32,000 bases of DNA from Thermoflexales bacterium (GCA_041738395.1 JBGSPW010000227.1:45320-77319), one strand, 5' to 3'; numbered from the stretch's first letter, positions 39-32,000 are shown. Numbers and translations are program-made. The notes: generated by a model from the letters alone, not told the origin.

Positions 39-2519
39 CTACTGCACCGGCTGCACGACAATCTCGACACCCGTGAACGGAGCGCCCTGCGTCAACACGA
101 CGATGGGCACCGGTGTGTCGAACAACGGTTGATTGCCCAACGTGATGCGGGCTTGCACGGTGTAGACGTGCGTCGGATCGATGAGATCGGCGGGGTACTC
201 GATGCGATAAGCGATGGGCACTTGCTTGCCCTGCGCGGAAATCAACTGCTGCCCGCCCAACTGCGCGGCCAGTTCCGTCGCGGACGTGTCCACCAGGATC
301 ACTTCAATCTGGGCGTCCTGGGGCAAAGCGATGCGCTCCACATACGTCACCGTGCCGGTGATGACACCAGTCAACTGCGGCGCGGCGGGGTTCGCGGTTG
401 TTCCGACCGGTTCCACGACGATGTTCATATCGCCGCTGGGGTTATCGCGCGTGATGACGGGATAGGCCGTGGTGTTGGTGTATTTCAAGACATCGCCGTC
501 GAAGATCTGCGCGCGCACGGCGTAAGTGTGCTCGGGCAAAATCGCGGCCTGCTCATACTCGATCGCGAACGGCACGGGCAGCGCCTGTTCTTCGCCCGCT
601 AAGCTGAACTGTCCGATCGTGACCGCGGGCGCGTCTGGCAGCGACGTGTCCTGCAGCGTCACTTCCAAACGCAGGCCAGCCGTCAACGTCACCGGTATGG
701 CCGCGCTGACTGCGCCGGTAACACTCGCCTGCGCTTGCAGCGGCACGGCTTCTTGGCTGAGGAATTCCAGATCGGCAATGAGGATCGATCCGGTCGGTTG
801 GCCGTCCAACGCCAGAGCGATCGAGTCGACGCGGCTCAGATCGACGCCGTCGAAATCGTTCAACGAAATTCGGATCGAGCTCATGGGCGCGAGGCCGCTC
901 CACCCGTAGAACTTCGTATCGGGTGCGCCGGGTTGATAGGCCAGCGCAGGTGTCTTGGCGGGCACTTTCACCGTGGAGGTATCACCATCTGCGTCTTGCA
1001 CGATCACGCTGAACGACTGCGGCAGTTGCGGCGCGTTGAGGAAAGCAGTCGGATCGGCCAGCGCGCGCAGGTGCAGCATCTCGAACTGACTGAGGTCCTG
1101 CGCTTCGTAAGGCAGCGTCGTGCTGAACACGGCGTTAGGCCCTGTCCACGAGAGCCGCAGCTGATCGGGCTGGCCGGGCTGCACATCCCAGGTTAGGCAC
1201 GGACGATTCGTTTCGCAATACGCCACATCGAGCGGGCCGTTGATCGTATTGGCTTGCCCGAAGTTGTTCTGGAAGCGATTCGTTTCGGTGGGCAGCAGAA
1301 CGATGCGACGCTGGGCAGAAGGCAATGACAACGAAGTCAGCACGTGATAGCCGTACAACCGATCGGGCGCAGCTACAAACGGATCAAGCCCGGCGGCCTG
1401 AGGATAGGGCTTCACCCCGAAGGCGGCATCCATGAAATCGGGCGTGTACTGCGCCAGGAAAGCATGCTGCTCATCGGCGTTGAGACGATTCTGTGCTTCA
1501 CAACCCGCGCGCTTTGAGTCTTGGGCTTCATCCGGCAAGATGCTGTTGAAGAAGTTGTGATTCGCGCCCTTGAGATAAACCGACGCGGCAAAGCTCGTCC
1601 GATCGGGTGACAGGCGAGCCGCTTCGTAATATTTCTGCCCGGCCAGATCGCCGAGGTCGTCATCGCACGCAGGCAGGATCACGCTCAACGGCACAGCGGG
1701 CGCAGTGCTCGCTTCGACGCCATAGACTGGCGCAAGATAGAGCATGCTGCTGATCGGTCCGAAGCCCTGCGCGATCAATTCGGGGCTGATGTTAGGCTTG
1801 CGGACTTCGATGACGTTGGTCGCCAGTTCACCGCTTTGCGAATGCGCCACGAAAGCGATCTTCGCTAGATCGGCTTTACCGGCGAGCGGCGCGCCGAAGC
1901 CCACATCTTGATCGGCATTAGCCACGGCCAGCGAAACAAGATATAGATCGACGATCTGCGGGAAGCGCGTAATGCCGCTGGTATCTTCGCCCCAGCCGTT
2001 GGTGTACGCAGCGTTCACATTGATGGACAAGGCCAGGTAACCGCGCGCGGCCAGCGCACTAGCCAGATAATCGAAGCCGGTGTAATTGGGCTGCTCGTTC
2101 TCACACGGCCATTGCTCCAGCAGGTCCTGACCTTCGACCTTCGGGCAAGCGCCATGCCGGCCGTGTATCAACACCACCACGGGAAACGGGCCGGTTCCTT
2201 CCGGCACGGCCAGCAGCCCAGTGAGGCGCAGCGGCATGGTATAGAACTTGTGATCTTGTGGATACTGCGGCTGAATGAGGGAGACCTCGCCCAGATCAAA
2301 CTCGATCGCCGGCGGCCCTTTGACCACAAAGGGTGTGGCCGTGGGCGGTAGAGCGGTCGCGGTCGGGCGAGGTGTCGCGGTCGGCGCGAGCGTCGCCGTG
2401 GGTTCGATCGTATTCGTGGCCGTGGGCACCGGCGCAGGTTCGGGCGCGGGAGCGCCGCACGCAGCGAGCAAGCAGATCAACACCAACAACATTGCCAAGA
2501 GACGAAAGTTAACGCGCAT
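39..2519 (-). CDS. Secreted lipoprotein: alpha/beta-hydrolase core fused to two C-terminal YbaY-like lipoprotein domains
   Basis: The track ORF is 39..2582. I prefer the internal ATG at 2517-2519 (MRVNFRLLAMLLVLICLLAACG). It has GGAG 6 nt upstream and gives a signal peptide plus lipobox (LLAACG). The protein continues with a Pro/Thr-rich linker and a hydrolase core (PFPVVVLIHG, nucleophile elbow AHSQSG). Two repeats follow that resemble E. coli YbaY: VTLQDTSLPDAPAVTIGQF..PVPFAIEYEQAAILPEHTYAV and IALPQDAQIEVILVDTS..PIAYRIEYPADLIDPTHVYTV. Confidence 0.8.
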   Translation of the reverse strand: MRVNFRLLAMLLVLICLLAACGAPAPEPAPVPTATNTIEPTATLAPTATPRPTATALPPTATPFVVKGPPAIEFDLGEVSLIQPQYPQDHKFYTMPLRLTGLLAVPEGTGPFPVVVLIHGRHGACPKVEGQDLLEQWPCENEQPNYTGFDYLASALAARGYLALSINVNAAYTNGWGEDTSGITRFPQIVDLYLVSLAVANADQDVGFGAPLAGKADLAKIAFVAHSQSGELATNVIEVRKPNISPELIAQGFGPISSMLYLAPVYGVEASTAPAVPLSVILPACDDDLGDLAGQKYYEAARLSPDRTSFAASVYLKGANHNFFNSILPDEAQDSKRAGCEAQNRLNADEQHAFLAQYTPDFMDAAFGVKPYPQAAGLDPFVAAPDRLYGYHVLTSLSLPSAQRRIVLLPTETNRFQNNFGQANTINGPLDVAYCETNRPCLTWDVQPGQPDQLRLSWTGPNAVFSTTLPYEAQDLSQFEMLHLRALADPTAFLNAPQLPQSFSVIVQDADGDTSTVKVPAKTPALAYQPGAPDTKFYGWSGLAPMSSIRISLNDFDGVDLSRVDSIALALDGQPTGSILIADLEFLSQEAVPLQAQASVTGAVSAAIPVTLTAGLRLEVTLQDTSLPDAPAVTIGQFSLAGEEQALPVPFAIEYEQAAILPEHTYAVRAQIFDGDVLKYTNTTAYPVITRDNPSGDMNIVVEPVGTTANPAAPQLTGVITGTVTYVERIALPQDAQIEVILVDTSATELAAQLGGQQLISAQGKQVPIAYRIEYPADLIDPTHVYTVQARITLGNQPLFDTPVPIVVLTQGAPFTGVEIVVQPVQ

Positions 2520-2585
2520 GAGATTCTCCGTGAGAAGGGATGTTGAATGAGGCTTTTCCAAGTTGAACGGGATCAACGTCAACCA

Positions 2586-19923: not shown

Positions 19924-20062
19924 ATACTCACTTTCCGATCGGCCAAAAGGGGGTTTTCAGCGTGCCTGAATTCACGTTCAATTCAAGTGCGGCACTGTAC
20001 ATAAGTATTCGCTGCGCTGGAATACGCCAAAAACTCACATTCAGCGAGCGGAAAATGAGTAT
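19924..20062. repeat. Imperfect 18-bp inverted repeats bracketing a low-GC 139-bp spacer at the core/island junction
   Basis: atactcactttccgatcg (19924-19941) matches the reverse complement of cgagcggaaaatgagtat (20045-20062) at 16/18. The right arm abuts and overlaps the stop codon (20062-20064) of the RCK-RyR gene. Confidence 0.4.
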
Positions 20063-21834
20063 CAAGGAACTCGTCCGCTAACACCATTCTCTTGCGGAAT
20101 GATCTGGTAACCGGCTCGACTCAGAAAAGATGGAATGCCGCGGACTGCCGTACGGTTTTTCTCTCTTTCGGCCTCGGGCAGCGCATCCCAGTCCACCAGG
20201 TGGGGATGGGTTCGAGCGGCTAGATCTTTCGGGCCAAGGGCGTAGCGCCAACCGTCGTTCTGCCTGTCCTGGCACCACAGCTGGTGTTCCAGCTGGGCCA
20301 TGCGCTCCAGCTCAGCCAGGGAGAATTCAAGCGCCGGTGAATCCCAACCGATCAGCGGGACCAGAGTATATCCGCCCTCTTTCAAGACCTGATTGATATG
20401 GTCTACCCATTGGTAATTCGCTTTCCGATACTGTTCGTCCAGCTGTGCCCAGGGTTGCATTGAAGGATCAGACGGCACAGCAGTGCCCGTTTTCATCTGC
20501 TGCTGAACATATTCTTCGTGAGCCGCCCGGGCGAGGACATCGTGGGTGGTATCGTTCAGCAGGTCGGGCGTACAGGTGTGATCGAGATACCCGAAAGCGT
20601 ACAGATTCTGGTAGGTTCCCCGGTCATTTTTTCGGTCCCCCAATAGCCGCGCCAGCCCGCTTTGTTCGGCCATGCGGATCACGATCGGAATGCCGCTGTT
20701 TGGCCGCTGGCGCAACAGAACCAATCCGGCATGTAAGCCAAGTGAGTCATTGTCCACACAGATATAAACGTGATCGATCCCCCGTTTGCCTGGAGCCGGG
20801 GAGAGATATGCGCCACTTTCAAACTCGGGAGAATGGATTTCTATCTGGTGCGGAATCAACTCACAGGCCTGTGCCAACTGTGGGTAGCGAATATAGAGCG
20901 ACTCGACCTTTCGCAGCGCGTAACGATCGATGATCGTCACTTGTAAACGACTGGACTTATCCGGTCGTTGGTCCCACCAACTCCGCGCCGTGTGTAACAC
21001 CAGACTTTCGCCCATGCGTCCGAGTCCCACCACCAACAGATGGGGAACAACCCCGGTCTGGACCAACTCATCGCGCCAGGCCGGATGTTCCTGCAACAAC
21101 CGACGCGCCCCACGCTCAAACACATTGAACAGCTCCAGCCGGAAAGGTCCCCCTTCCAAGGTCGCTTCCTGCTCACGCAGTAGCGCACACAGCTGAGGAT
21201 CAGAGACGTGAATCAAACACGGCAACGGCTCAACCCGGCGGTCTCGCACTATCGCCTGGACACTGAGCGCAATTTCGATGTTAAGGCCATCGTTGTCGCA
21301 CACCGCAAACAGGCCGCGCGCACGCTTGACGCCAGCCCGCAACAACAAGGCGGAGGTGGTCGCATCGCCCGGCAGGACAAACAGCCCTAGCGCGTGACAG
21401 GCAGCGATCCAACTGTTCTTCTCATCGCGCTCGATCACCACGACCCTGGCGCCTTTCTTCCGAAACTGCTGGGCCAGCAGAAAGCCCTTGCGGCTGAGAC
21501 CGCAGATGATGATGTGCCCGCGCAGGCGGCGCAGCCGGGCCGCGTCGATCTGCTGGCGAAACAAATCCAGCAGGACTTTCACCACCGCCAGGCCGGTCAG
21601 GAAGGGAACGGCGAAGCGGGCCAGGTTCAGTTCCAGCGGCAGGGGCGGCGTGACCGCGCCAGAATTCATCGGGATCAATTGCAGGGTCAGATAAAACGAA
21701 TCGGCCAGCGAATAGGGCAGCTGATTCCAGGTGGCATACCGGGTAAAGCCCACCAGCCCGGCGGTCAGGGCCAGCATCCAGAGAATCCCTAGGCCGAGCC
21801 ATTGGTATTTTTGCCAGATCTTTAACTTGTGCAT
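20062..21834 (-). CDS. Membrane protein: 2-TM channel-like N-terminus + tandem RCK/TrkA-N Rossmann domains + two C-terminal RyR (ryanodine-receptor) domains
   Basis: 590 aa. The TM helices are WLGLGILWMLALTAGLVGF and FAVPFLTGLAVVKVLLDLF, with a re-entrant-like segment between them (SFYLTLQLIPMNSG, no TVGYG). The Rossmann motifs are HIIICGLSRKGFLLAQQF..VVVIERDE and HLLVVGLGRMGESL. RyR-type repeats occupy the last 160 aa (about 20065-20544): LARAAHEEYV...GGYTLV and AQLEHQLWCQDRQNDGWRYALGPKDLAARTHPHLVDWDALPEAEREKNRTAVRGIPSFLSRAGYQI. Confidence 0.75.
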   Translation of the reverse strand: MHKLKIWQKYQWLGLGILWMLALTAGLVGFTRYATWNQLPYSLADSFYLTLQLIPMNSGAVTPPLPLELNLARFAVPFLTGLAVVKVLLDLFRQQIDAARLRRLRGHIIICGLSRKGFLLAQQFRKKGARVVVIERDEKNSWIAACHALGLFVLPGDATTSALLLRAGVKRARGLFAVCDNDGLNIEIALSVQAIVRDRRVEPLPCLIHVSDPQLCALLREQEATLEGGPFRLELFNVFERGARRLLQEHPAWRDELVQTGVVPHLLVVGLGRMGESLVLHTARSWWDQRPDKSSRLQVTIIDRYALRKVESLYIRYPQLAQACELIPHQIEIHSPEFESGAYLSPAPGKRGIDHVYICVDNDSLGLHAGLVLLRQRPNSGIPIVIRMAEQSGLARLLGDRKNDRGTYQNLYAFGYLDHTCTPDLLNDTTHDVLARAAHEEYVQQQMKTGTAVPSDPSMQPWAQLDEQYRKANYQWVDHINQVLKEGGYTLVPLIGWDSPALEFSLAELERMAQLEHQLWCQDRQNDGWRYALGPKDLAARTHPHLVDWDALPEAEREKNRTAVRGIPSFLSRAGYQIIPQENGVSGRVP

Positions 21835-21889: not shown

Positions 21890-22180
21890 ATGATATACGC
21901 CGCTGTCGAGCGAGAAATGCTATCCTCCGCGCGTGAATTGGAATTCGTGCATGTGCGGATTTCCCCGCACCGGCCCTGTACCAATGGCATCGTCGAGCGC
22001 CTGGTCCGCACCGTGAAAGAGTGGCTCGAAACCCACTCGTGGAGCAGCCCCGAAGACTTGCAGGCGTTGCTGGCCGAGTTCATCACGGACTATAACGACC
22101 GCCCACATCAAGGGGCCGAACTGGACGGATTGTCTCCCAACGAGCTCGCCCGGCGGCTCGCTGGCTGTTCAACATGTTAG
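21890..22180 (+). pseudogene. Truncated DDE (rve-type, IS481/IS3-like) transposase remnant, C-terminal part only
   Basis: The 96-aa ORF contains ..HRPCTNGIVERLVRTVKEWL..FITDYNDRPHQG.., which is the last catalytic-Glu region of the integrase core. The upstream D,D part is missing because the fragment begins 55 nt from the RCK-RyR gene start. I did not identify terminal inverted repeats. Confidence 0.7.
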
Positions 22181-22709
22181 CGAACAATACAATAATCGAT
22201 CAGTTGTTGCAGCACCCACTGCTGGATGGCCGCAAATTATCCCCAGGCAACAGTGGTAGCACCCTCATTGTGTTGGGTGTCGGTCTTATCGCTACGTTGC
22301 TCGTCGTATTGGCTTATGGTCTCAGCTTGCTGTACACACGCCTTTTGCCGTTCGACATCGGCCAGGCGACACTGTTCGCACTGAGCGCCATCATCGCGGT
22401 GACGGCGCTCGTTTGGCGCTGCGCTCACCTTCCACGTCGGTCTGGATGAATCTGGCCGTGCCACGATCGAGCTCGTTGACCAGGCGTGCTATAGCGTCCT
22501 GTCCGGCACGTTGATTGATCTCGGCCATCACGGCGCGCACCAATCGCTTATTTGTGCTTCAGGGTCTCAAGAAGTCGCTGGGCGGTTGTCTCTCATTCCG
22601 ATCAAGAACGAGTCGTGCTTAAGTGTCGCGGGCATATCTGTTGCCTCTTTAGCATAGTTTAAGATCTCTCAAGGTCCGTTTGCCCTTGTGCTTTGTCGGC
22701 CTCTGCTCA

Positions 22710-25700
22710 CTACTTGCTTTCTGGCAATGCTTCGCACGTTTTCCGATACGGCTCATTCCCAAGATACTGCTTCCATTCCGCTCGCGTCAGGTTGCGATTG
22801 GCAATGCGGCATGCGCTTGCTAGCCACGATCTAATATCAAGATCCCACAAGATGACGGCATAAAAATTGGCTGAGGAAGCCAGCCATCTGCCATCAGGGC
22901 TAAAGGCAATGCTGCCTACACCAACCTGACCAAAGAGTGGCGTGGTGAACTGAGCAGGAGATTTGTGATCAGAGATATCCCATAGCGCAATGGCCCCATA
23001 GTCATCCCCACGCGAAGCCAAAGTCTTGCCGTCAGGGCTGAGTGCAATGGGAGCACTGCCGGCAAGCGCCACGCCGAGTTGGACCGGCAACGTCGGTGTA
23101 GAAATATCGTATAAAAGAATGTCGTTGCCGGCTACCAAAATCAATGTCTTGCCGTCGGGGCTCAACAGGATATCAACCAGCGGTCCCTTCAATCCAGATA
23201 GCGACGCATTGAGATACGGGGGATCGGAAATCTTCCACAATTGAACTTTGCTTTGGTTACAGACCATGCCGAAGTCAGCGCACCCACCCACGACTAATAA
23301 CTTACCATCAGGACCAAAGGCGACCTTTGATAATCCGAGTGTATTACTGGAAATCGGCGCACCCAGTTGGATGGGTGATTCAGGGTCGGAAACATCCCAT
23401 AGAACTAGATTGCTAAATGTGGCGAAGTTCATTGTATTCCACCACACCAGTGTCCTCCCGTCCGGACTGAATACAACTTCTGGCCAATCGCCACCGTTGG
23501 GTATCGTGACAGAAAATGGCGTACCAAGTTGAATCGGAGTTCGAGGATTAGAAACATCCCATAGGACTATGACAGCCACTTTTCCGCGTCTGCTCCATGC
23601 CAATATTTTTCTATTGGGGTCTAGAACAATGCTGTCACCGTGTTCAACCCTGAGAGGTTCTTTAGAAAGCAATATATCAAGCTGGACAGGAGTCTGGGAA
23701 TTAGAGACATCCCGGAGGACGATGGCGTTGTCTTTGACGCTCAATGCCAATATCTCGCCATTGGAGCCAAAAGTTATCTTGGAGTCAGAAGGGAGTTCGC
23801 CAACGAGAACGGGCAAGCGAAGGACAGAAACGTCCCACAGGTTTATATGGGCCGTGCTGCCTGACACCAATGTCTTGCCGTCGGGACTGAAAGCAAGATC
23901 TCCTACACGCTCTTCGGGACCGAAAACATGTACAACAGACGAAATAGACAAAGGTGACCGGTAATCGGAAATGTCCAACAAAGCAACGGTGTAGTTGCCG
24001 CCGCCTAAGGCTAGCATCTTCCGACCAGGACTGAAAGCCGCGCCTCCAAAGCCTGAAGGGCCGGAAATTGTTGCACCAAGTCGGGCAGGCGATTTGGGAT
24101 TGGAAATGTTCCACTTGGCAAGAGTGCCGTCACCCCCCACAAGTAATGTCTTACCATCAGTAGCAAAGGCAACAGTTACCACAGGAAATGTATGGGAGAG
24201 TGGGCTGCCGATCGGGATAGGCAAACCGGGGTCGGAGGTATCCCACAGGATAACCGATTTGTCACTACTTCCAGAGGCCAGAATTTTTCCATTGGGACTA
24301 AAGGCAACGCTCGTCACAGCAGCTGCATGTCCAGAAAGGGTGGTGCCGAGAAGAGCTGGTAACACAGGACGAGAAACGTCCCATAAACGAATTTCACCTG
24401 AGCGAGGTTCGTTAGGGCTACCTCCTTCATCAGCTTTTCCTCCGCTGCCAGAGGCCAGCAGCTTGCCATCCGGGCTGAAAGCAACACTTTCTACTGGAGC
24501 AGAATGACCGGTGAGTGGCGCGCCGAGAAGAACCGGCGAAGAAAGATTAGAGACATCCCACAGATAGGTTTGGCCTAGCTTAGGGAAACGAGAGAGATCG
24601 AGTTTCACATTACCGCCTGCGGCCAACAATCTTCCGTCAGGGCTGAAGGCAACATCATAAACCGGTCCAGGAGGGCCGGAAAGTGGTTCACCCAAAGGCT
24701 GGCGACTGACAATATCCCACAACTGAACCTCTCCTTGAGAACAATAGTATTTAACAAAATTTACTGCACACCCTCCTGAAGCCAATGTTCTACCATCGGG
24801 GCTAAAAACAAGGCTATAGACACCGGCTTTATGGCCTGCGAGTGGTGGGGCAAGCTGAACGGGCAACGATGGATTGGAAATATCCCATAGATAGATCTTG
24901 CCCTGGGCACAGCCACCCGCTTGATCATCAAACTCGCTGCAAATGCCCATTGCCAGCATCTTTTCATCGGGACTGAAAGCGAGACCGGACACCTCAAGTC
25001 GCTGCGACGTTCGCTCCGACGCGCTGGATGCGGGAGAGCGCAGAAAGGTTACAAGACGTGGGCTATGCTGTAAGGCGGCCAGCAAACTGCTGCGCGCCTC
25101 GATGGTATCCATCATTCGGTAGGCTTCCGCGCCCAACAGCAAAGCCAAGTCAAGTTCTTTGTCCAAATGCGAAATCGCTTGCACTGATAGTTGGCGAGAG
25201 AGCGCAGTTTTGGCTTGTCGCTGGGCTTCATCGCGTTGTTCCACAGCCCGAGTGCTGGCGGCTTGAGCTGTGGAGGCATTTTGATTTGCGCGAATGGCAT
25301 TCTGGTTGGATTGCAATCCAAAGAAAACCGCAATCATAGCGGCGAGAAGCGCCGCTGCGCCAGCAGCGGTGATAATTCGGTTGCGCGTGCGCAGACGCCT
25401 GGCCGACTGCTGTTGCTCCTGGAGTTTTTCGGCGGCTTCACGGTCAGCTTCCTGCCGGCTGGTCAGCACATACTGACGCTGTAATGGCGTGGGTTGGGGA
25501 GTTCTTTCCACATCGATTCCGGCCAAGCGCTGCTCCGCCTCCAGCAAATCGGTGCCACGCAAAAGAAAACTGGCGTCTCGTGTCTTTTTCTCCCACTCTA
25601 CTGCACGCATCTGCAGCCGGGTATGCACTTTAGTCCATTCCAAGTCGGTCTGAATGGCGACGAGCAGGGTGTCAAACGCCTTCTGATAATCATCCTGCTG

Positions 25701-26036
25701 CTCGCGGAAGAAAATCCAATTGAGCCGGGTGACTGTTTCGGGCGCGGCGCGCGGTTCCACTTCCCGCGGCACAATGGGGATGAGGCGCTTGCCATTCTGT
25801 GCAGCGTGGGCAATCTCTTTGCTGCAAATTTCCGAGCTAATCGAATCGGGGCTGACGACGAACACAAAGGTATTGGCCTGCTCGATGGCCGTATAGACTT
25901 CGGCCAGCCAGTCGGCGCTGGGGGGAATATCCTGCCAGTCAATCCAGGTGTCCAGTTGGCGCTCTTGGAGCAACTGGTGCAAAACGCGGGCAAAGGCAAT
26001 ATCTTTACGAGAGTAGGAGATAAAAACGTCGCTCAT
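22710..26036 (-). CDS. TIR domain / single TM helix / WD40 beta-propeller repeat protein (about 15 blades)
   Basis: 1108 aa. The N-terminal TIR is MSDVFISYSRKD..TFVFVVSPDSISSEICSKEIAHA (Glu74 codon at 25815-25817). A conserved helical module follows (HTRLQMRAVEWEKKTRDASFLLRG..). A basic stretch RRLRTRNR precedes the TM segment IITAAGAAALLAAMIAVFFGL (about 25311-25376). Repeated AFSPDGK/R.LASG..(I/V).LWD blades follow. I found no P-loop. Confidence 0.9.
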   Translation of the reverse strand: MSDVFISYSRKDIAFARVLHQLLQERQLDTWIDWQDIPPSADWLAEVYTAIEQANTFVFVVSPDSISSEICSKEIAHAAQNGKRLIPIVPREVEPRAAPETVTRLNWIFFREQQDDYQKAFDTLLVAIQTDLEWTKVHTRLQMRAVEWEKKTRDASFLLRGTDLLEAEQRLAGIDVERTPQPTPLQRQYVLTSRQEADREAAEKLQEQQQSARRLRTRNRIITAAGAAALLAAMIAVFFGLQSNQNAIRANQNASTAQAASTRAVEQRDEAQRQAKTALSRQLSVQAISHLDKELDLALLLGAEAYRMMDTIEARSSLLAALQHSPRLVTFLRSPASSASERTSQRLEVSGLAFSPDEKMLAMGICSEFDDQAGGCAQGKIYLWDISNPSLPVQLAPPLAGHKAGVYSLVFSPDGRTLASGGCAVNFVKYYCSQGEVQLWDIVSRQPLGEPLSGPPGPVYDVAFSPDGRLLAAGGNVKLDLSRFPKLGQTYLWDVSNLSSPVLLGAPLTGHSAPVESVAFSPDGKLLASGSGGKADEGGSPNEPRSGEIRLWDVSRPVLPALLGTTLSGHAAAVTSVAFSPNGKILASGSSDKSVILWDTSDPGLPIPIGSPLSHTFPVVTVAFATDGKTLLVGGDGTLAKWNISNPKSPARLGATISGPSGFGGAAFSPGRKMLALGGGNYTVALLDISDYRSPLSISSVVHVFGPEERVGDLAFSPDGKTLVSGSTAHINLWDVSVLRLPVLVGELPSDSKITFGSNGEILALSVKDNAIVLRDVSNSQTPVQLDILLSKEPLRVEHGDSIVLDPNRKILAWSRRGKVAVIVLWDVSNPRTPIQLGTPFSVTIPNGGDWPEVVFSPDGRTLVWWNTMNFATFSNLVLWDVSDPESPIQLGAPISSNTLGLSKVAFGPDGKLLVVGGCADFGMVCNQSKVQLWKISDPPYLNASLSGLKGPLVDILLSPDGKTLILVAGNDILLYDISTPTLPVQLGVALAGSAPIALSPDGKTLASRGDDYGAIALWDISDHKSPAQFTTPLFGQVGVGSIAFSPDGRWLASSANFYAVILWDLDIRSWLASACRIANRNLTRAEWKQYLGNEPYRKTCEALPESK

Positions 26037-26154: not shown

Positions 26155-29100
26155 CTATTGAGCCAGCTGGCACGTGGCGTGGTAAACTGCCTGATCGAAA
26201 TAGAGGGACCATTCTTCCTGGGTGAAATTGCGGTTGGCAATCTGACAGACGCGGGTCAGCCAATCTTGCGGGTCCAGGGACCACACAGTCATTTTGCTAA
26301 TCTCAGAGGTATACAGAAACCGGCTGTCGGGGCTGAAGCCCAAGACTGTGACGCTGGAGTCTGGGTTGCGGATGGGCTGGCCGACAGGTTGCCGTTTTTG
26401 AACGTCCCACAAGGTAATCAGACCGACCCCGCAGCCTGAGCCGTTGCCACTATCGCAGCCGACGCTGACCGAATAGCGCCCATCCGGGCTTCTGAGCCAT
26501 GCAACGGTCAGAGTGTTCATCAGCGGATCGGGCTGCCCGCTCTCGATATCCCACCAGATGTCTTGCTGTTTGAGAGACAGGTAGGTGCTAATGCCGATCT
26601 TTTTCCCGTCGGGGCTGAATTCCAGCAGTTTGACACTCCCGTTCGTGGAGCCATCAAACGGCTTGCCGATCGTTTTGCCGGTCTCCATATCGTACATTTC
26701 GATCCGATAAGTCTGGCAGCTTTGAACTCCCTTGATGCATCCGGCGGCAGCCAGGGTTTTCCCGTCCGGACTGAAGGCCAGCGTGATGAACCCCGGGTCG
26801 AGAGTCATCGATATCTGGTGGACAACCTGGCCGATGGCTGGATCCCAGACCAGGAAAGTCCCATGTGGTCCGTCACTGACCATCCAACGGTCATCCGGGC
26901 TGAACTTCAGATTCAGTGCCCACCCGTCGATCATAACCGGCGCGCCAATCGACTGTCGGGTGGCAACGTCCAGGAAATGCATCCGGGTGGATTGGACGTT
27001 GCCGATTAGCTCTGTGTAGACCAGAACCTTACCGGAGTGGCTGAGGAAAATACGGGAAATATCGACATCCGGTGCGGTCATGAAAGGCTGCCCGGCCGGT
27101 TTGTTTTTCTCGACATCCCAAACAACGATATCTTTCGTGGAAGCAGCGACAACAATTGGTTCTTGCGGGGCAGCGGGGTCAAAGCCAACCTGCCAGTAGC
27201 TCCACGGCGAGGGATCGCTGTTGTTGAAAACTTTCGCCACCGGCTGCCAGGAAAACAGGTTCCACAGGTAGATCTGACTTTCTTTGCAGTCCATATAGAG
27301 CCCGGCTACAGCGCATGAGCTGCTGGCTAAGAAACGGCCATCCGGGCTGATGGCCAGCGCATTGACGAATCGGGTTGTTTGGTAAGGCTCCAGAGTGAAG
27401 GCGTCCCTGGAATTCGTAGCGGAGTGAATCGCAAGTGGAGATCCGAAACTAAGGCTGGCCAAAATCTGGTCGCTACCCGACCGGCTGAAGAGCAGGCTGT
27501 CAATCTCTGATTTCTGCGTGTAGGAGGCTGCCTGCTTCCAGTTTGCCACGTTAATGATGTGGACGATCCCCGCCGCCTCCCCAGCAGCCAGCAGCTCGCC
27601 ATCGGCGCTCACGTCGACCGAGACGATCGCGCTGGTTGTGCCTTCAATCGGATGCGCCTGCATGCTTCCATCCGGCAGGTTCCAGGTTTTTACTTCTCCC
27701 TTCTGACAAAAATCCATTTTGGATTTACCAGTTCCTTGGGTTCGCAGGCCGGCACAGTCGCCGGCGTACAGACGGTCACTCTGCGGACTGAAGGCCAGGT
27801 TATGCATCTGCGTTCCCACCCCTTTAAGTGCCACCCCAGGTGGGTTAGCGATGCTCAAATCCCAAAGAACGATTCCTCCCGTGTCGCACAACCCGCCAGG
27901 CATGGAAAACCCATGGCACCCACCACTGGCCATGTATTTCCCGTCCGGGCTGATGGCCACCATTCCGCTGCTGTTGGCGAAAGCCGGCAGAGGAATGGGG
28001 GCCGGCTGGCCTCCTGCAGATAGATCGAAGCGATAAATCCGATCTCCGGCGATGGCAGCAAACAGAGCCGACCCATCCGGGGTAAAAGCCAACCCGGTCG
28101 GCCGGCCTCCGCCGGCAGCCAGGACCCGGCCCATCTGCCCGCTGGCAAAGTCGTAGAAGACGATCTTATTTTGCAGGCAGGCATCATGCTTCTCATCGCG
28201 CTGGGCGCATCCCGCCACCGCAATCCACTTTCCATCCGGCGAAAAGGCCAGTGCAGTGATTTGCTCCGGATAGCGGTCGATGCGTGCCAGTTGAGGACTC
28301 TGCTCCAGTGCCAGGAGCAAACTACTGCGAGCGTGATAGGTATCGGCAGCCAGGTACGATTCGGCAGCCAGGAGCATCGCCAGGTCAAGATGATGAGTCA
28401 ACTGGGTCTGGGACTGGGTCGACAGCTGGCCAGACAGGGCTATCTTCGCCTGGCGTTGAGCCTCGTTGCGCTGTTCCACGGCCAGTGTGCTGGCGGCCTC
28501 GGCGGTAGCCCGCTGGTTGATCGCATTGGCCTCGGCCGTGGCGCGAGTGAATGATTCGGCCACGGCTGTCGAGCGGGCATAGGACTCGGCCAGGGCATTG
28601 GCCTGTGCCAGATTGCTTTGAACCAGGGCGACAATTGCTAGCGCCACAGCAATCACAAATCCGATCGTCACCGCACCGAGCGTGATACGCTGACGCCGGT
28701 CGGCATCCCGACGGCCGGCTAGCAGGTACTGCTTTTGCAGAGTGGTGGGCTGGGGTTCTTTTTGCCCGGTGGCCTGCGCCAGCCAAGTCTCGGCGTCGCG
28801 CAATTCCCGCCCACGCAGCAGAATGCTGGAGTCACCCTGTTTATTTTCCCATTCCAGGGCGCGCACCTGGAGGCGGGTGTGGACTTTCACCCAGGCCAGG
28901 TCGGTCTGAATGGCAGTCAGCAGTTTATCGAAGGGCTGCTGGAAGTCGGATTCTTGCGGTGAAACGTTCTCGCGTGCGGGGAAGAAGATCCAGTTTAGGG
29001 CTGCAATATCGGGCAGCAGTTCTTCAGACTTGATCTCCGGGTGGATAACAATAGGGACTAGCCGCTTGTGGTTATCGATGGCGTGCTGCACCTCTTTGCT

Positions 29101-29313
29101 GCACACTTCTGAGTTCTTGGAATTGTGGCTGACGATATATACAAAAGTATCTGCCGCTTCGATGGCGTGGTAAATCTCGCTGAGCCAATCAGCTGAAGGG
29201 GGGATGTCCTCCCAGTCGATCCAGGTTTCAAGGTTTCTAGCTTTAAGGGCATCGACCAGGATGTGAGCAAAGGCCACATCTTTGCGGGAGTAGGAGATAA
29301 AAACGTCGCTCAT
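26155..29313 (-). CDS. TIR domain / single TM helix / divergent WD40-like beta-propeller repeat protein (about 14 blades), paralog of 22710..26036
   Basis: 1052 aa. The TIR is MSDVFISYSRKDVAFAHIL..NSEVCSKEVQHA (Glu74 codon at 29092-29094). It is about 60/90 identical to the downstream paralog over the first 90 aa by hand alignment. The TM segment is ITLGAVTIGFVIAVALAIVALV (about 28618-28686). The start overlaps the stop of the upstream gene (ATGA at 29310-29313). Confidence 0.9.
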   Translation of the reverse strand: MSDVFISYSRKDVAFAHILVDALKARNLETWIDWEDIPPSADWLSEIYHAIEAADTFVYIVSHNSKNSEVCSKEVQHAIDNHKRLVPIVIHPEIKSEELLPDIAALNWIFFPARENVSPQESDFQQPFDKLLTAIQTDLAWVKVHTRLQVRALEWENKQGDSSILLRGRELRDAETWLAQATGQKEPQPTTLQKQYLLAGRRDADRRQRITLGAVTIGFVIAVALAIVALVQSNLAQANALAESYARSTAVAESFTRATAEANAINQRATAEAASTLAVEQRNEAQRQAKIALSGQLSTQSQTQLTHHLDLAMLLAAESYLAADTYHARSSLLLALEQSPQLARIDRYPEQITALAFSPDGKWIAVAGCAQRDEKHDACLQNKIVFYDFASGQMGRVLAAGGGRPTGLAFTPDGSALFAAIAGDRIYRFDLSAGGQPAPIPLPAFANSSGMVAISPDGKYMASGGCHGFSMPGGLCDTGGIVLWDLSIANPPGVALKGVGTQMHNLAFSPQSDRLYAGDCAGLRTQGTGKSKMDFCQKGEVKTWNLPDGSMQAHPIEGTTSAIVSVDVSADGELLAAGEAAGIVHIINVANWKQAASYTQKSEIDSLLFSRSGSDQILASLSFGSPLAIHSATNSRDAFTLEPYQTTRFVNALAISPDGRFLASSSCAVAGLYMDCKESQIYLWNLFSWQPVAKVFNNSDPSPWSYWQVGFDPAAPQEPIVVAASTKDIVVWDVEKNKPAGQPFMTAPDVDISRIFLSHSGKVLVYTELIGNVQSTRMHFLDVATRQSIGAPVMIDGWALNLKFSPDDRWMVSDGPHGTFLVWDPAIGQVVHQISMTLDPGFITLAFSPDGKTLAAAGCIKGVQSCQTYRIEMYDMETGKTIGKPFDGSTNGSVKLLEFSPDGKKIGISTYLSLKQQDIWWDIESGQPDPLMNTLTVAWLRSPDGRYSVSVGCDSGNGSGCGVGLITLWDVQKRQPVGQPIRNPDSSVTVLGFSPDSRFLYTSEISKMTVWSLDPQDWLTRVCQIANRNFTQEEWSLYFDQAVYHATCQLAQ

Positions 29314-29903
29314 AGGGTAACTTTCTCGCTATTTTGGCGGCGTGGTTTTTCTGCCGGAAAATTCTCGTAGGTCACACTGGCCTGGATTGGCGCCGATGCA
29401 CTCGCCTCCACCACGCTGGGTTGATAGTTTGGGGCATAGACCCAGGCGATCGGCAAGCCCCGCTGACGCGCCTCTAAAACTATTTGCCCGGTGCCGCCCT
29501 GGCCTCTTGGCGGCTGGCCATCCCAAAGCGCAACGAGCACATCCACCTGATCGAGCATGTAACGCCCGGCGAATTCATAGGCCGCAACGCGCGTTGAACT
29601 GACTGGAAGTTCGATTACCCTGTCAGCGCGCGTCAATAGATCCAGGAATTCCAGCCTTGAATCTTTAGAGAAATCGGTCAAATACTCTTCTTTCTTCAAG
29701 GGGAGCGGCACGACCAGGCGGGTCTCGATCACTTCGAAGGCGCGTTGAACAACCAGTCGGTCCGCGCCGTCCGCCAACGAACTGTAGAGGCGGAATGGCC
29801 CGGCGAACCTCGCCTGGATTTTTTCCAGCACATTATCGACCTGGCGAATAAGCCGGTTCAGGTCGTATAAAACGCGGTGGCCTGTCACGCCGATGTTTGT
29901 CAT
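29310..29903 (-). CDS. Stand-alone SLOG-superfamily (DprA/LOG/YpsA-like Rossmannoid) protein
   Basis: 197 aa with GGTGG upstream of the ATG at 29901-29903. SLOG-like motifs are IGVTGHR at the N-terminus, SLADGADRLVVQ (the GxD glycine-rich loop), and VLVALWDGQPPRGQGGTGQIVLEARQRGLPIAWV (comparable to LOG PGGxGT and DUF2493/YspA patterns). That it is coding is secure; the family call rests on motifs only. Confidence 0.6.
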   Translation of the reverse strand: MTNIGVTGHRVLYDLNRLIRQVDNVLEKIQARFAGPFRLYSSLADGADRLVVQRAFEVIETRLVVPLPLKKEEYLTDFSKDSRLEFLDLLTRADRVIELPVSSTRVAAYEFAGRYMLDQVDVLVALWDGQPPRGQGGTGQIVLEARQRGLPIAWVYAPNYQPSVVEASASAPIQASVTYENFPAEKPRRQNSEKVTL

Positions 29904-29970: not shown

Positions 29971-32000
29971 TTAGCCTTTGTCAGATCTCGCAATGGCGTA
30001 CCCCGCCCTGGCCAGGATCTCCGGGATGCCGCGCACCAGGTCACGGTCCTTCACCTTCTCTTCTTCAGGCAGCTGCTCCCAGGAGACAAGACATGTGTGT
30101 ATCTTTTTGGCCGCATCAGTTTCGGAGGCATAGACCCAGCCGTCATCGAGTTTGGATTGCATCCAACGTTCGTGTTCCGCCTTCGCCAGCGTCTCCATGG
30201 GTTCACCGGGGAAGTTAAAGGGTGGTTCGTTGCTGCGCGCCGGGATCATGATATAGCCGGCCGCCGCCAGTTTGGCCGGGATATCACGCACGTATAGCCG
30301 GTTCTGCTCCTTCAGGAAGTCGGGCAGCTCCGCATACGAGACGAGGGCCATGTGGGTCTTGAGCGCCTCGTCGGTCTTGGAGCCATACTGGTAGCCGCGT
30401 TTTTTCAGCCCCTCGCAAAAAATCGTGTGATTAGCCTCGGCCAGATCTTCGAGCATCTGCCCTTCCAATTCAACTTGCTGGACCAGGGAGAGGAAGCGTT
30501 TGCCGTCCACGTGCAGGTCGAGCTGCGATTCGGACGGCAGGCAGGAGCGCTCAAAGGCGGTCTTGCCGGTTAACTGGCTCATGGCGAACAGCGACTCGAT
30601 CGAACGCGCGCCATGCCTGTATTGCCCAATCTTCAGCAGGGCGCGCAGCACCCCGCGGTCGATGTTGAGCCATTCCTGCCCGCCGCGTTTCTCGAACAGT
30701 TGAGGCGTGCCGCGCTTCAGGCACGATCGTAACAGGATCGCCCGGCGGATGATAAAGTACGGGTCTTCGCTGTTTCCCTTGACCGGGTTGGGCCCCAGGA
30801 CGTTGATGTAACCCTTGAGGCGGCTGACGAAATCGGGCCCTTTGGCCGACTTGAAGTTCTTGTCGATCCCCTTGTCGAATTCCGCCATGCTGCTACTGGT
30901 CCCGCCGGCGAAGACGAAAATCGAGCGACCGATCGGGTGGTTGATCTGGCCTTCCTGGAATTTACCATCCTGCATGGGAGCCAGGAAGTAGCGCAACCAG
31001 CCGAGCGGCATTTCGCCCAGAGAGGTGTCGAACTCATCCCAGAATACCAGCGGGATCTTGCCACTCAGGCCGACGTCGCGCACTTGGTGGAGGGCAGACA
31101 ATAAACCATCGACGGAATCGAACTGGGACAGGTTGAAAGTGATCGGTTCGATCTGGCCGGGCAGGAGGGATTTGGCCATCTCGGTGACACCGAAGGACTT
31201 GCCTGACCCGGGCGTGCCGAACACCGCGATCGAAAGCGGACGCGTCACCTGCTTTTGTCCGGCATACTCGGCGACCAGGTTGCGGATGCTGCGGTAGCTT
31301 TCGATCTCCTGGCGGTCGACCGTCAGCAGGTTGCCGAACTGTCCCCAGGGCACTCCTTGCAGAGCCACTTCCGGTCCTTCCAAGACGACCTGCATGGCGA
31401 CCTGATCCAGCCCTCCCTTAAATTTGTCTTGCAGGATCGTCCAGAAGCCTTCCGTCAGCGGTTTCTCGGCCGGTTCCCCGGTTTGATGGATGAAGCGCAT
31501 CGGATCCTGGATTGGGGCGACTGTGAACTGTTTCGTCGGCTGGGCCAGAGCGGCCGCGACCTTGACGATGGGGAAAACGAGTTTGGCCTGCGAGGCAGGC
31601 GTGCCCCGTTCACCGTAGCCCTCCAAGTGCAGAATTCGCATGGCCGCCAGGCCAGACTGGATCCCAGACTGGATATCGGGCTGATCGGGCGAGACCATCA
31701 GCTGGCGGGCGATTCCGGCCGTCAGGCAGGTGGTGTAGCCGATCATCCTGCCGGGATAGTCCTTCTCCCACATGTGCTCGATGCCTTTCGGATCGAAGAA
31801 TAGAGAACACTGGAAGGTGGGCTGGTCTTTTCCTTCCTGCCGCGACAGGAGGATCGCCCCGGCAGGCCCAAAGGAAATGATCACGTGGGCGCAGTGCGAA
31901 AGCGAGTTGATACACGGGTTATGCACTAGCTCCCAGAAGACGTCCTGAGCGGTGCGTTCCCAGGAGAGTTCCCGGCTGATCTGGACTTCGCTCAAGCGCA
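29971..32000 (-). CDS. AAA+ ATPase with two C-terminal RyR domains and an N-terminal domain of unknown (possibly degenerate PfkB-like) fold; 5' end probably beyond the window
   Basis: The stop is TAA at 29971-29973. Walker A is GTPGSGKS (31195-31218, checked against the DNA). Walker B is IPLVFWDEFD and sensor-1-like is IFVFAGGTS. The two RyR repeats are in the last 161 aa (about 29974-30456): AEANHTIFCEGLKKRGYQYGSKTDEALKTHMALVSYAELPDFLKEQNRLYVRDIPAKLAAAGYIMI and AKAEHERWMQSKLDDGWVYASETDAAKKIHTCLVSWEQLPEEEKVKDRDLVRGIPEILARAGYAIA. The only in-window start candidate is TTG at 31993-31995, and the frame stays open to the edge. Confidence 0.8.
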   Translation of the reverse strand, partial: RLSEVQISRELSWERTAQDVFWELVHNPCINSLSHCAHVIISFGPAGAILLSRQEGKDQPTFQCSLFFDPKGIEHMWEKDYPGRMIGYTTCLTAGIARQLMVSPDQPDIQSGIQSGLAAMRILHLEGYGERGTPASQAKLVFPIVKVAAALAQPTKQFTVAPIQDPMRFIHQTGEPAEKPLTEGFWTILQDKFKGGLDQVAMQVVLEGPEVALQGVPWGQFGNLLTVDRQEIESYRSIRNLVAEYAGQKQVTRPLSIAVFGTPGSGKSFGVTEMAKSLLPGQIEPITFNLSQFDSVDGLLSALHQVRDVGLSGKIPLVFWDEFDTSLGEMPLGWLRYFLAPMQDGKFQEGQINHPIGRSIFVFAGGTSSSMAEFDKGIDKNFKSAKGPDFVSRLKGYINVLGPNPVKGNSEDPYFIIRRAILLRSCLKRGTPQLFEKRGGQEWLNIDRGVLRALLKIGQYRHGARSIESLFAMSQLTGKTAFERSCLPSESQLDLHVDGKRFLSLVQQVELEGQMLEDLAEANHTIFCEGLKKRGYQYGSKTDEALKTHMALVSYAELPDFLKEQNRLYVRDIPAKLAAAGYIMIPARSNEPPFNFPGEPMETLAKAEHERWMQSKLDDGWVYASETDAAKKIHTCLVSWEQLPEEEKVKDRDLVRGIPEILARAGYAIARSDKG

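Follow-up and report, generated by a model that had tools for sequence, protein, structure and literature searches.

A 32,000-nucleotide stretch of the genome of a Thermoflexales bacterium (GCA_041738395.1 JBGSPW010000227.1:45320-77319; hereafter the window, with positions counted from its first letter) encodes a 590-residue membrane protein, RCK-RyR, which consists of a two-transmembrane (2TM) pore-loop module, two RCK domains and a C-terminal tandem of RyR domains resembling Repeat12 (R12) of the animal ryanodine receptors. We consider it probable that this protein provides the output, at the membrane, of a Thoeris-like system of several genes that signals through TIR-made nucleotides, in which an RyR-gated pore serves as the effector. 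An ion-leak output is the probable role because RyR is a domain shown to bind cyclic ADP-ribose (cADPR) signals made by TIR proteins, and because the gene belongs to a cluster, recurrent across phyla, with genes for TIR proteins, a SLOG protein and an ATPase that carries RyR repeats of its own (ATPase-RyR). A sequence-only reading of the window, made before any database was searched, had proposed that a TIR-made nucleotide is read by RyR or SLOG modules and acts on a pore. That proposal is now supported, although we only infer the depolarisation outcome and the choice of RyR over RCK as the ligand site. The gene and its parts are as follows.

20062..21834, minus strand: RCK-RyR gene, 590-residue membrane protein (intact open reading frame; Pfam TrkA_N and RyR; AlphaFold2 predicted local distance difference test, pLDDT, 86)
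21742..21798, minus strand: first transmembrane helix, residues 13-31 (Kyte-Doolittle window 1.89; inside AlphaFold2 helix 2-37)
21652..21708, minus strand: putative pore helix and P-loop, residues 43-61, D45..Y48..Q52-L53-I-P-M-N57-S58-G59 (conservation, AlphaFold2, BLASTP against MthK)
21568..21624, minus strand: second transmembrane or inner helix, residues 71-89 (hydropathy; AlphaFold2 helix 67-102 continues into the RCK linker)
21085..21522, minus strand: RCK1 Rossmann domain, residues 105-250, G112-x-S-x-x-G117 and E135 (Pfam TrkA_N)
20560..21051, minus strand: RCK2 Rossmann domain, residues 262-425, G270-x-G272-x-x-G275 and D303 (AlphaFold2 beta-alpha-beta pattern, motif, Foldseek)
20335..20547, minus strand: RyR repeat 1, degenerate, residues 430-500, H439, Y442, D456, N473 (lax-threshold RyR stretch; aligns to ATPase-RyR repeat 1)
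20089..20322, minus strand: RyR repeat 2, residues 505-582, H517, W520, H543, N560 (Pfam RyR, 1.4e-15; PDB alignments)

Pfam assigns residues 510-578 of the channel-like protein to RyR (PF02026; E 1.4e-15, 57.8 bits against a cut-off of 27.4), and a weaker second RyR stretch becomes visible at a lax threshold. Repeats of the same type close the ATPase-RyR protein, whose open reading frame at 29971-31995 contains two PF02026 stretches (E 2.8e-24, 85.6 bits against 27.4). The two C-termini align with one another over 159 residues at 33% identity (E 4e-24; 20065-20544 versus 29974-30456), so that the sequence-only reading was right, in both coordinates and motif, to place RyR-type repeats at the ends of two proteins. 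Among PDB sequences, both C-termini match Repeat12 of RyR1, RyR2 and RyR3 and a 'putative ryanodine receptor' of Bacteroides thetaiotaomicron. Structure prediction of the repeats, proposed in the same reading, gave a concordant fold of two pseudo-symmetric repeats: residues 430-580 of the channel model align with RyR3 Repeat12 (9l9b, 9ls7) and with the Bt-hRyR chimera 6uhi over 176-191 columns, with E-values of 5e-6 (RyR3 Repeat12 with ADP) to 2e-5 and template-modelling (TM) scores of 0.52-0.59 on the target. According to their PDB titles, the RyR3 Repeat12 structures matched by Foldseek carry dantrolene together with ADP or AMP-PCP. The accompanying belief that RyR domains are uncommon in bacteria does not survive, given that the full-length RCK-RyR family alone comprises 2049 cluster representatives (50% identity) at E ≤ 1e-30, and that RyR proteins are present in 258 phage records.

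The likely chemistry of such domains is suggested by a May 2026 preprint, in which RyR-domain proteins of phages bind or cleave 2'cADPR and 3'cADPR: some are sponges with nanomolar affinity for these TIR-made molecules, and one, RyDEP, is a cADPR glycosidase with a catalytic His/Asp pair (PMC13232231). The recognition residues H75, W78, H100 and D117 of RyDEP are conserved across PF02026 and the animal R12 domains (PMC13232231). We mapped this register by motif spacing, through the B. thetaiotaomicron sequence and the published description rather than the RyDEP sequence itself; the B. thetaiotaomicron protein has the same spacing, H-x-x-W with a His at +25 and an Asp at +42 from the first His. 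The equivalents in repeat 2 of the channel are H517, W520, H543 and N560, with Asn replacing Asp. Among 117 members of the RCK-RyR family, over which all conservation counts for the channel were taken, position 517 is His in 111, position 520 is Trp in 99 and Phe in another 8, position 543 is His in 55, Asn in 32 and Ser in 19, and position 560 is Asn in 76 and Asp in 26. Repeat 1 has H439, Y442 and N473 at tetrad positions and has lost the second His. Repeat 2 of ATPase-RyR (29974-30222) keeps the His, Trp, His and Asp in 82, 80, 67 and 80 of 84 homologues, respectively. The Asp is kept in the ATPase repeat but is mostly Asn in that of the channel, a pattern of residues that hints at a division of labour in which the ATPase would process the signal and the channel would read it. 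A Ruegeria phage RyR protein also has the H/W/H/D tetrad; we cannot be sure that it is the sponge homologue of the preprint (PMC13232231), and if it is the tested sponge, then Asp versus Asn alone does not decide between binding and catalysis. That the channel ligand is a TIR product held by the RyR domain is a proposition we regard as evenly balanced. Another pairing of RyR with nucleotide-messenger enzymes was seen at L090:15964-18963, where a 264-residue RyR-domain protein adjoins a RelA_SpoT-TPR protein and a NUDIX hydrolase.

The genomic context was surveyed by scanning one genome per GTDB species with the RCK-RyR family alignment, which returned 80 loci from Chloroflexota, Bacteroidales, Ignavibacteriales, Gemmatimonadota, Aminicenantes, Armatimonadia, one deltaproteobacterium and others, with the reservation that the taxonomy labels of metagenome-assembled genomes in this survey may be unreliable. 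Searches of these loci by tblastn with the window proteins detected the ATPase, outside its RyR portion, in 28, SLOG in 25 and TIR in 32, the last figure being an undercount insofar as the window's own TIRs miss divergent ones. Where at least 5 kb was available on each side of the gene (31 loci), at least one of the three partners lies within 10 kb in 21: TIR in 17, ATPase-RyR in 15 and SLOG in 10. In 19 of 25 loci a same-strand SLOG gene ends no more than 250 nucleotides upstream (binomial ~2e-37 under uniform placement), and in 13 loci a same-strand TIR gene begins no more than 500 nucleotides downstream (binomial p ~7e-11 under uniform placement). The case for enrichment is built on this positional clustering and on partners specific to the family, not on a comparison with random loci of the same genomes. 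Reciprocal searches starting from SLOG agree, in that a ~900-residue RyR protein is encoded before it and TIR_2 and TrkA_N/RyR genes after it, or NACHT-WD40 and RCK-RyR genes beside it. Our first guess, drawn from the context of a single relative (P0007, discussed below), had been accidental linkage, and it was overturned by the 80-locus survey. The linkage of RCK-RyR to TIR, SLOG and ATPase-RyR genes is real and frequent, albeit not obligate, and the expectation of the sequence-only reading that such proximity would not be due to chance is borne out.

Typically, the genes form a compact operon, ATPase-RyR → SLOG → RCK-RyR → TIR, which occurs in Chloroflexota, Bacteroidales, Ignavibacteriales, Gemmatimonadota and others. 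An Anaerolineales locus (L029) encodes, in order, ATPase-RyR (881 residues), SLOG (183), RCK-RyR (591), TIR_2 (398), TIR-WD40 (995) and DUF4062-NACHT-WD40 (1429) with gaps of 16-181 nucleotides, and a Bacteroidales locus (L076) encodes TIR_2-TPR, an outer-membrane barrel protein, ATPase-RyR, SLOG and RCK-RyR. The order found in the window, ATPase-RyR, SLOG, TIR, RCK-RyR, is repeated in L083 and L084, in which a transposase interrupts the channel gene; L064 has ATPase-RyR, two TIR-WD40 genes and an RCK gene, with no SLOG gene detected there. For 24 linked RCK-RyR/ATPase-RyR pairs the distance matrices of the two proteins are correlated (Mantel r 0.55, p ≤ 5e-4), in keeping with co-inheritance, although the shared history of the organisms might by itself account for part of the correlation.

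Viewed from the ATPase, a homologue in a Halobacteriota archaeon adjoins a gene for a TIR_2-RDD membrane protein, another in a Chloroflexi genome (L092) has a short 2TM-RCK protein and three TIR proteins nearby, and a third whose context was inspected has no partner. The short protein of L092 (11628-12398; 256 residues) is without RyR, has a different loop motif and stands where the channel would otherwise be, with ATPase-RyR on one side and the three TIR genes on the other. Among 80 metagenome ATPase-RyR loci, 52 have at least 1.5 kb downstream, and a partner was found in 31 (TIR 17, SLOG 11, RCK 7). ATPase-RyR and TIR look like the core of the system, with SLOG and the RCK-RyR pore as frequent modules. 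At L086:4168-5190, on an Acidobacteriota contig, a HigB/HTH toxin-antitoxin pair lies between a small TIR_2 gene and an ATPase-RyR/SLOG pair, which fits a mobile defence context.

The remainder of the 590-residue protein has the build of a tandem-RCK channel. TrkA_N (PF02254) covers residues 108-200 (E 1.8e-17, 64.2 bits against a cut-off of 23.8), and the second RCK domain was recognised by its fold and motif, with Foldseek matching the tandem-RCK proteins GsuK, TrkA and CASTOR. The dinucleotide-binding signature of RCK1, G112-x-[SG]-x-x-G117 with E135, is invariant or nearly so, and that of RCK2, G270-x-G272-x-x-G275 with D303, is conserved in 116-117 of 117 members. An AlphaFold2 model built from 35 homologues (pLDDT 86, predicted TM-score 0.77) comprises, in order, two long helices separated by a short helix and a loop, then two Rossmann domains and a helical C-terminal domain. 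The top Foldseek matches of this model in the PDB are full-length chains and ring structures of GsuK (4gx0, 4gx1 and 4gx5; E ~3e-11), ADP-bound and NAD-bound entries among them, followed by TrkA, KtrA, the CASTOR/DMI1 gating rings and MthK; sequence identity to tandem-RCK channels is only 14-18%. Like GsuK and the other tandem-RCK proteins (MthK, the TrkA ring, CASTOR/DMI1), RCK-RyR places a 2TM module before two RCK domains in one chain, and it keeps the GxGxxG and acidic signatures that accompany ADP or NAD binding in GsuK. It differs from GsuK in a Q-L-x-x-[LM]-[NE]-S-G loop instead of TVGYG, in the added C-terminal RyR tandem and in its linkage to TIR, SLOG and ATPase-RyR genes. An NCBIfam search returned sub-threshold TrkA/Kch/Kef matches only, by way of the RCK domain, and homologues are already labelled 'NAD-binding protein', 'Kch' or 'TrkA-N domain/RyR domain' in databases. 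Relatives of the channel were absent from the viral contigs searched, and a promoter and terminator scan around the gene gave counts not above those of shuffled sequence.

Hydropathy and the AlphaFold2 model both predict the order transmembrane helix, pore helix, loop, transmembrane helix. Between the two hydrophobic helices, the model places a short helix (residues 43-51) and then a loop in which pLDDT falls to 70. Residues D45, Y48, Q52, L53, S58 and G59 are each conserved in 110-116 of 117 members, and position 57 is Asn in 72 and Glu in 32. A BLASTP alignment with a hand-entered MthK sequence sets L53-I-P-M-N57 opposite T-V-G-Y-G. A pore function is suggested by the topology, by the fold and by how strongly the loop is constrained, and on balance the assignment of ion conduction to this protein is tentative, falling slightly short of even confidence. 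The sequence-only description of a 2TM-RCK channel-like protein stands with respect to the two predicted transmembrane helices, the TrkA_N domain and the GsuK-like fold, and does not extend to a match with any ion-channel family. Across the family the loop reads Q-L-[IVF]-x-[LM]-[NE]-S-G, with about a quarter to a third of members reading 'T/V/A-L-E-S-G'. The 'TLESG' variants resemble the TLESW filter of bacterial sodium channels, a lead that sequence searches do not support.

Combining these observations, a signalling route can be proposed. TIR proteins that span the membrane once and expose WD40, TPR or lectin repeats beyond it would sense a threat and convert NAD+ into an ADP-ribose-derived signal. 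In the channel, RyR repeat 2 would bind this signal through H517/W520/H543/N560, perhaps with a contribution from the two dinucleotide sites of the RCK domains, and the cytoplasmic ring would then open a pore that is not selective for K+. Collapse of the membrane potential or a leak of cations may follow, such that the infected cell stops growing. ATPase-RyR, which keeps the RyDEP-type His/Asp dyad, may act with the SLOG protein to read, process or remove the same signal.

Several observations weigh against this reading. With regard to the pore, the test for a TVGYG filter failed: both filter glycines are missing in the window protein and across the family, as the sequence-only reading had noted for the former, so that classing the protein as a K+ channel is not warranted. 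Furthermore, the transmembrane module does not match Pfam Ion_trans_2 or any other ion-channel family in Pfam even at E ≤ 5, and a profile of the module searched against PDB sequences found no channel and nothing else of relevance. Full-length TM-scores to GsuK are low (0.35-0.39) because the domain arrangement differs. With regard to the context, 10 of the 31 well-flanked loci have no TIR, SLOG or ATPase-RyR gene within 10 kb, and the closest relative of the window protein for which context is available (P0007, 58% identity) has metabolic neighbours and none of the partner genes. An RCK gene is present in only 7 of 52 ATPase-RyR loci, making the channel an optional module. In the window itself, an insertion-sequence remnant and 875 nucleotides lie between the nearest TIR gene and RCK-RyR, and the left flank contains sugar metabolism and other ordinary genes rather than a defence island. 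Finally, PADLOC models match none of the channel, SLOG and ATPase proteins, the TIRs alone matching ThsB models (E ~1e-10); by this measure the channel falls in no established Thoeris effector family (ThsA, ThsC to ThsL).

One alternative is a housekeeping cation channel, gated by ATP/ADP or NAD(H) in the manner of GsuK, TrkA and KtrA, for which the TIR neighbourhood would be secondary or opportunistic. The size of the family and its absence from viral contigs are in keeping with such a role, as are the third or so of well-flanked loci without any partner, the metabolic neighbours of P0007 and of the left flank, and the dinucleotide-binding signatures kept in both RCK domains; moreover, the closest structures bind ADP or NAD, and even RyR3 R12 binds ADP and AMP-PCP. 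However, the same-strand, near-abutting placement of SLOG, ATPase-RyR and TIR genes recurs in several phyla, partner clustering goes far beyond chance, and a pore without a K+ filter leaves no obvious role in K+ homeostasis. We therefore regard a housekeeping channel as unlikely.

A second alternative accepts the TIR system and moves the gate: a fall in NAD+ or a rise in ADP-ribose brought about by the NADase activity of the TIRs, for example, would act through the RCK Rossmann sites, and the RyR tandem would buffer or hydrolyse the signal or dock to ATPase-RyR. Invariant GxGxxG and acidic residues in both RCK domains, the binding of NAD and ADP by the RCK of GsuK, and the precedent of RyR-domain proteins that are pure sponges or enzymes could all be accommodated by this arrangement. 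It would also suit the phosphate-contacting His543, kept in only 55 of 117 members, and the short 2TM-RCK proteins without RyR that also stand beside ATPase-RyR and TIR genes (L092). Yet more than 90% of members retain H517 and W520, nearly all retain the complete RyR tandem, and the Asn that mostly replaces the catalytic Asp in the channel speaks against hydrolysis by this protein; control of the gate by the RCK sites alone is, in our estimation, improbable. A non-conducting role, in which a degenerate 2TM module would serve only to hold a cytoplasmic nucleotide-binding platform at the membrane and to assemble it into oligomers, making it a scaffold or regulator beside the TIR receptors, might account for the lack of a Pfam or PDB channel match, the two missing filter glycines, the pLDDT of 70 in the loop and the membrane location of the partner TIR proteins, but is very unlikely, since near-invariant D45, Y48, Q52, L53, S58 and G59 in a re-entrant loop are hard to explain for a mere anchor and the build matches tandem-RCK channels, including ones with non-canonical filters (the CASTOR/DMI1 gating rings are among the matches).

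The neighbours of RCK-RyR in the window are as follows.

29971..32000, minus strand: ATPase-RyR, C-terminal 674 residues of an 883-residue protein cut by the right window edge (P0241, 883 residues, 100% identical); Walker A at 31195-31218 and tandem RyR at 29974-30456, same strand
29310..29903, minus strand: stand-alone SLOG protein, 197 residues, YpsA-like (AlphaFold2 pLDDT 90; Foldseek)
26155..29313, minus strand: TIR-transmembrane-WD40 protein B, 1052 residues; TIR residues 1-114 (28972-29313), transmembrane helix residues 213-231 (28621-28677) (TIR_2, 9e-25)
22710..26036, minus strand: TIR-transmembrane-WD40 protein A, 1108 residues; TIR residues 1-131 (25644-26036), transmembrane helix residues 221-239 (25320-25376) (TIR_2, 5e-26; WD40, 4e-55)
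21890..22180, plus strand: insertion-sequence remnant, C-terminal integrase-core fragment, 96 residues (Pfam rve_3, 2.5e-12)

The cluster's genes lie close together, with 67 nucleotides between ATPase-RyR and SLOG, a 4-nucleotide overlap between the SLOG stop codon and the start of TIR-WD40 protein B, and 118 nucleotides between the two TIR genes. ATPase-RyR had been read from the sequence as an AAA+ ATPase, and its invariant Walker A Lys and Walker B Asp-Glu (84 sequences) uphold the ATPase assignment; membership of AAA+ is reflected in weak Pfam AAA matches only (22 of 24 members), and the gene seen within the window is truncated relative to the 883-residue protein. Its N-terminal ~440 residues have no Pfam family or PDB sequence match, and a ribokinase-like motif in this part was an impression without support and was dropped. 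ATPase-RyR is far more conserved than the channel, at 65-85% identity across many metagenomes, and is also found in the Halobacteriota archaeon. The SLOG assignment holds at the level of fold: the model of the 197-residue protein matches YpsA 2nx2 (Foldseek E 2e-8, TM-scores 0.64/0.71), then DprA, LOG and the ThsA SLOG with 3'cADPR, with a TRPM2 chain also among the fold matches, and its GVTGHR, AEGAD and GGTG motifs are conserved. Pfam gave no significant match to this protein, the YpsA and YAcAr families appearing only below threshold.

TIR proteins A and B combine WD40 propellers with one strong transmembrane helix directly after the N-terminal TIR. Glu74 (protein A numbering), the putative catalytic residue by comparison with known TIR motifs, is present in each of the 60 TIRs from related loci. 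The TIR proteins of these clusters are shaped like Toll-like receptors: a TIR is followed by one transmembrane helix and then by repeats of the WD40, TPR, fn3 or C-type-lectin kind, which would lie outside the cytoplasm. In the two window proteins, several Arg residues in a row flank the helix on its TIR side. The same build is seen at L029:11802-16166, L076:2214-3764 and L092:12415-19532. On the plus strand, a 91-residue hydrophobic open reading frame without a family match overlaps the rve_3 fragment (together 21890-22449). Between 20 and 30 kb the G+C content is below that of the window's left half, falling from ~0.61 on the left to 0.50-0.57 in the cluster, and this drop and the insertion-sequence remnant are as expected of a mobile island. 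At the far left, in otherwise metabolic surroundings, an 847-residue protein (39-2582, minus strand) carries at its C-terminus a pair of YscW domains, which are of a type III secretion lipoprotein chaperone-like kind.

Among characterised systems, the proposed TIR-RyR pathway comes close to Thoeris, whose TIR proteins make ADP-ribose-derived signals that activate effectors, several of which breach the membrane, and whose type X has a validated ion-channel effector, ThsK, with a signal described as unknown (10.64898/2025.12.03.692087). As in the type II membrane-pore and type X forms, TIR genes that keep the Glu lie beside genes for nucleotide-sensor and membrane or enzymatic output proteins, and the SLOG domain of ThsA also has a counterpart in the cluster. 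Unlike in Thoeris, the sensor would be RyR/R12 rather than SLOG, Macro or another known sensor, and the system has four or more genes. The large TIR-transmembrane-WD40/TPR membrane proteins are, moreover, unrelated in sequence to type X ThsB. The four plasmid-collection loci inspected by way of the type X TIR cluster were all Macro-type (type II) systems. In the part of the TIR survey that was available, RyR and TrkA are not mentioned among its 29 effector types (10.64898/2025.12.03.692087), and Kaur et al. 2020 (eLife) mentions neither. The RCK-RyR TIR system was not found in PADLOC or in the literature searched, which did not cover Burroughs et al. 2015 (NAR) on SLOG/TIR systems. The novelty appears to lie in a sensor domain, and in a pore effector bearing it, that are both new to TIR-signalling systems; the RCK-RyR domain architecture itself is already visible in databases.

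The phage RyDEP and sponge proteins and the B. thetaiotaomicron RyR protein (3NRT/6UAG) share with the window proteins the Pfam family, the fold and the H-x-x-W...H...D spacing. The phage proteins are small, have a single repeat and serve viral counter-defence by destroying or sequestering the signal, and the preprint treats viral RyR proteins only (PMC13232231). In contrast, the RyR domains described here are encoded by the host, come in tandem and are joined to a pore or an ATPase, with mostly Asn at the catalytic position in the channel and Asp kept in the ATPase. The resemblance to animal systems is one of logic and a single domain: as in animal RyR, an R12-type domain sits on a predicted cation channel with an ADP-ribose-messenger enzyme nearby, and as with TRPM2, a SLOG domain belongs to the same pathway, yet the architecture is that of a 2TM RCK channel and not of the six-transmembrane RyR superfamily. 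To our knowledge, direct binding of cADPR to animal RyR is unproven, and the parallel with animal cADPR and RyR remains an analogy. We also consider a stronger proposal, namely that RyR/R12 is the true receptor for TIR-made cADPR-type messengers and directly gates the membrane pore, so that RCK-RyR would be a prokaryotic prototype of an R12 cation channel opened by an ADP-ribose messenger; this is a speculative possibility that we think somewhat unlikely. If R12 does gate the pore directly, it would be fed by sensors with the shape of Toll-like receptors (TIR inside, one transmembrane helix, repeats outside), and the R12 of animal RyR would descend from a nucleotide-sensing immune module.

Overall, the locus suggests that the host uses the RyR domain, fused to a pore and to an ATPase, as a receptor of the signal, whereas binding or cleavage of TIR-made 2'/3'cADPR by this domain has so far been shown only for phage counter-defence proteins. 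If true, RCK-RyR would represent a new sensor-effector type in TIR/Thoeris immunity, common in Chloroflexota and also present in several other phyla and one archaeon, and its TIR-transmembrane-WD40/TPR/lectin partners would add a Toll-like-receptor-like build to prokaryotic immunity. The 590-residue protein may also provide a tractable test of whether R12 couples an ADP-ribose-derived messenger to channel gating, a long-standing question for animal RyR and cADPR.

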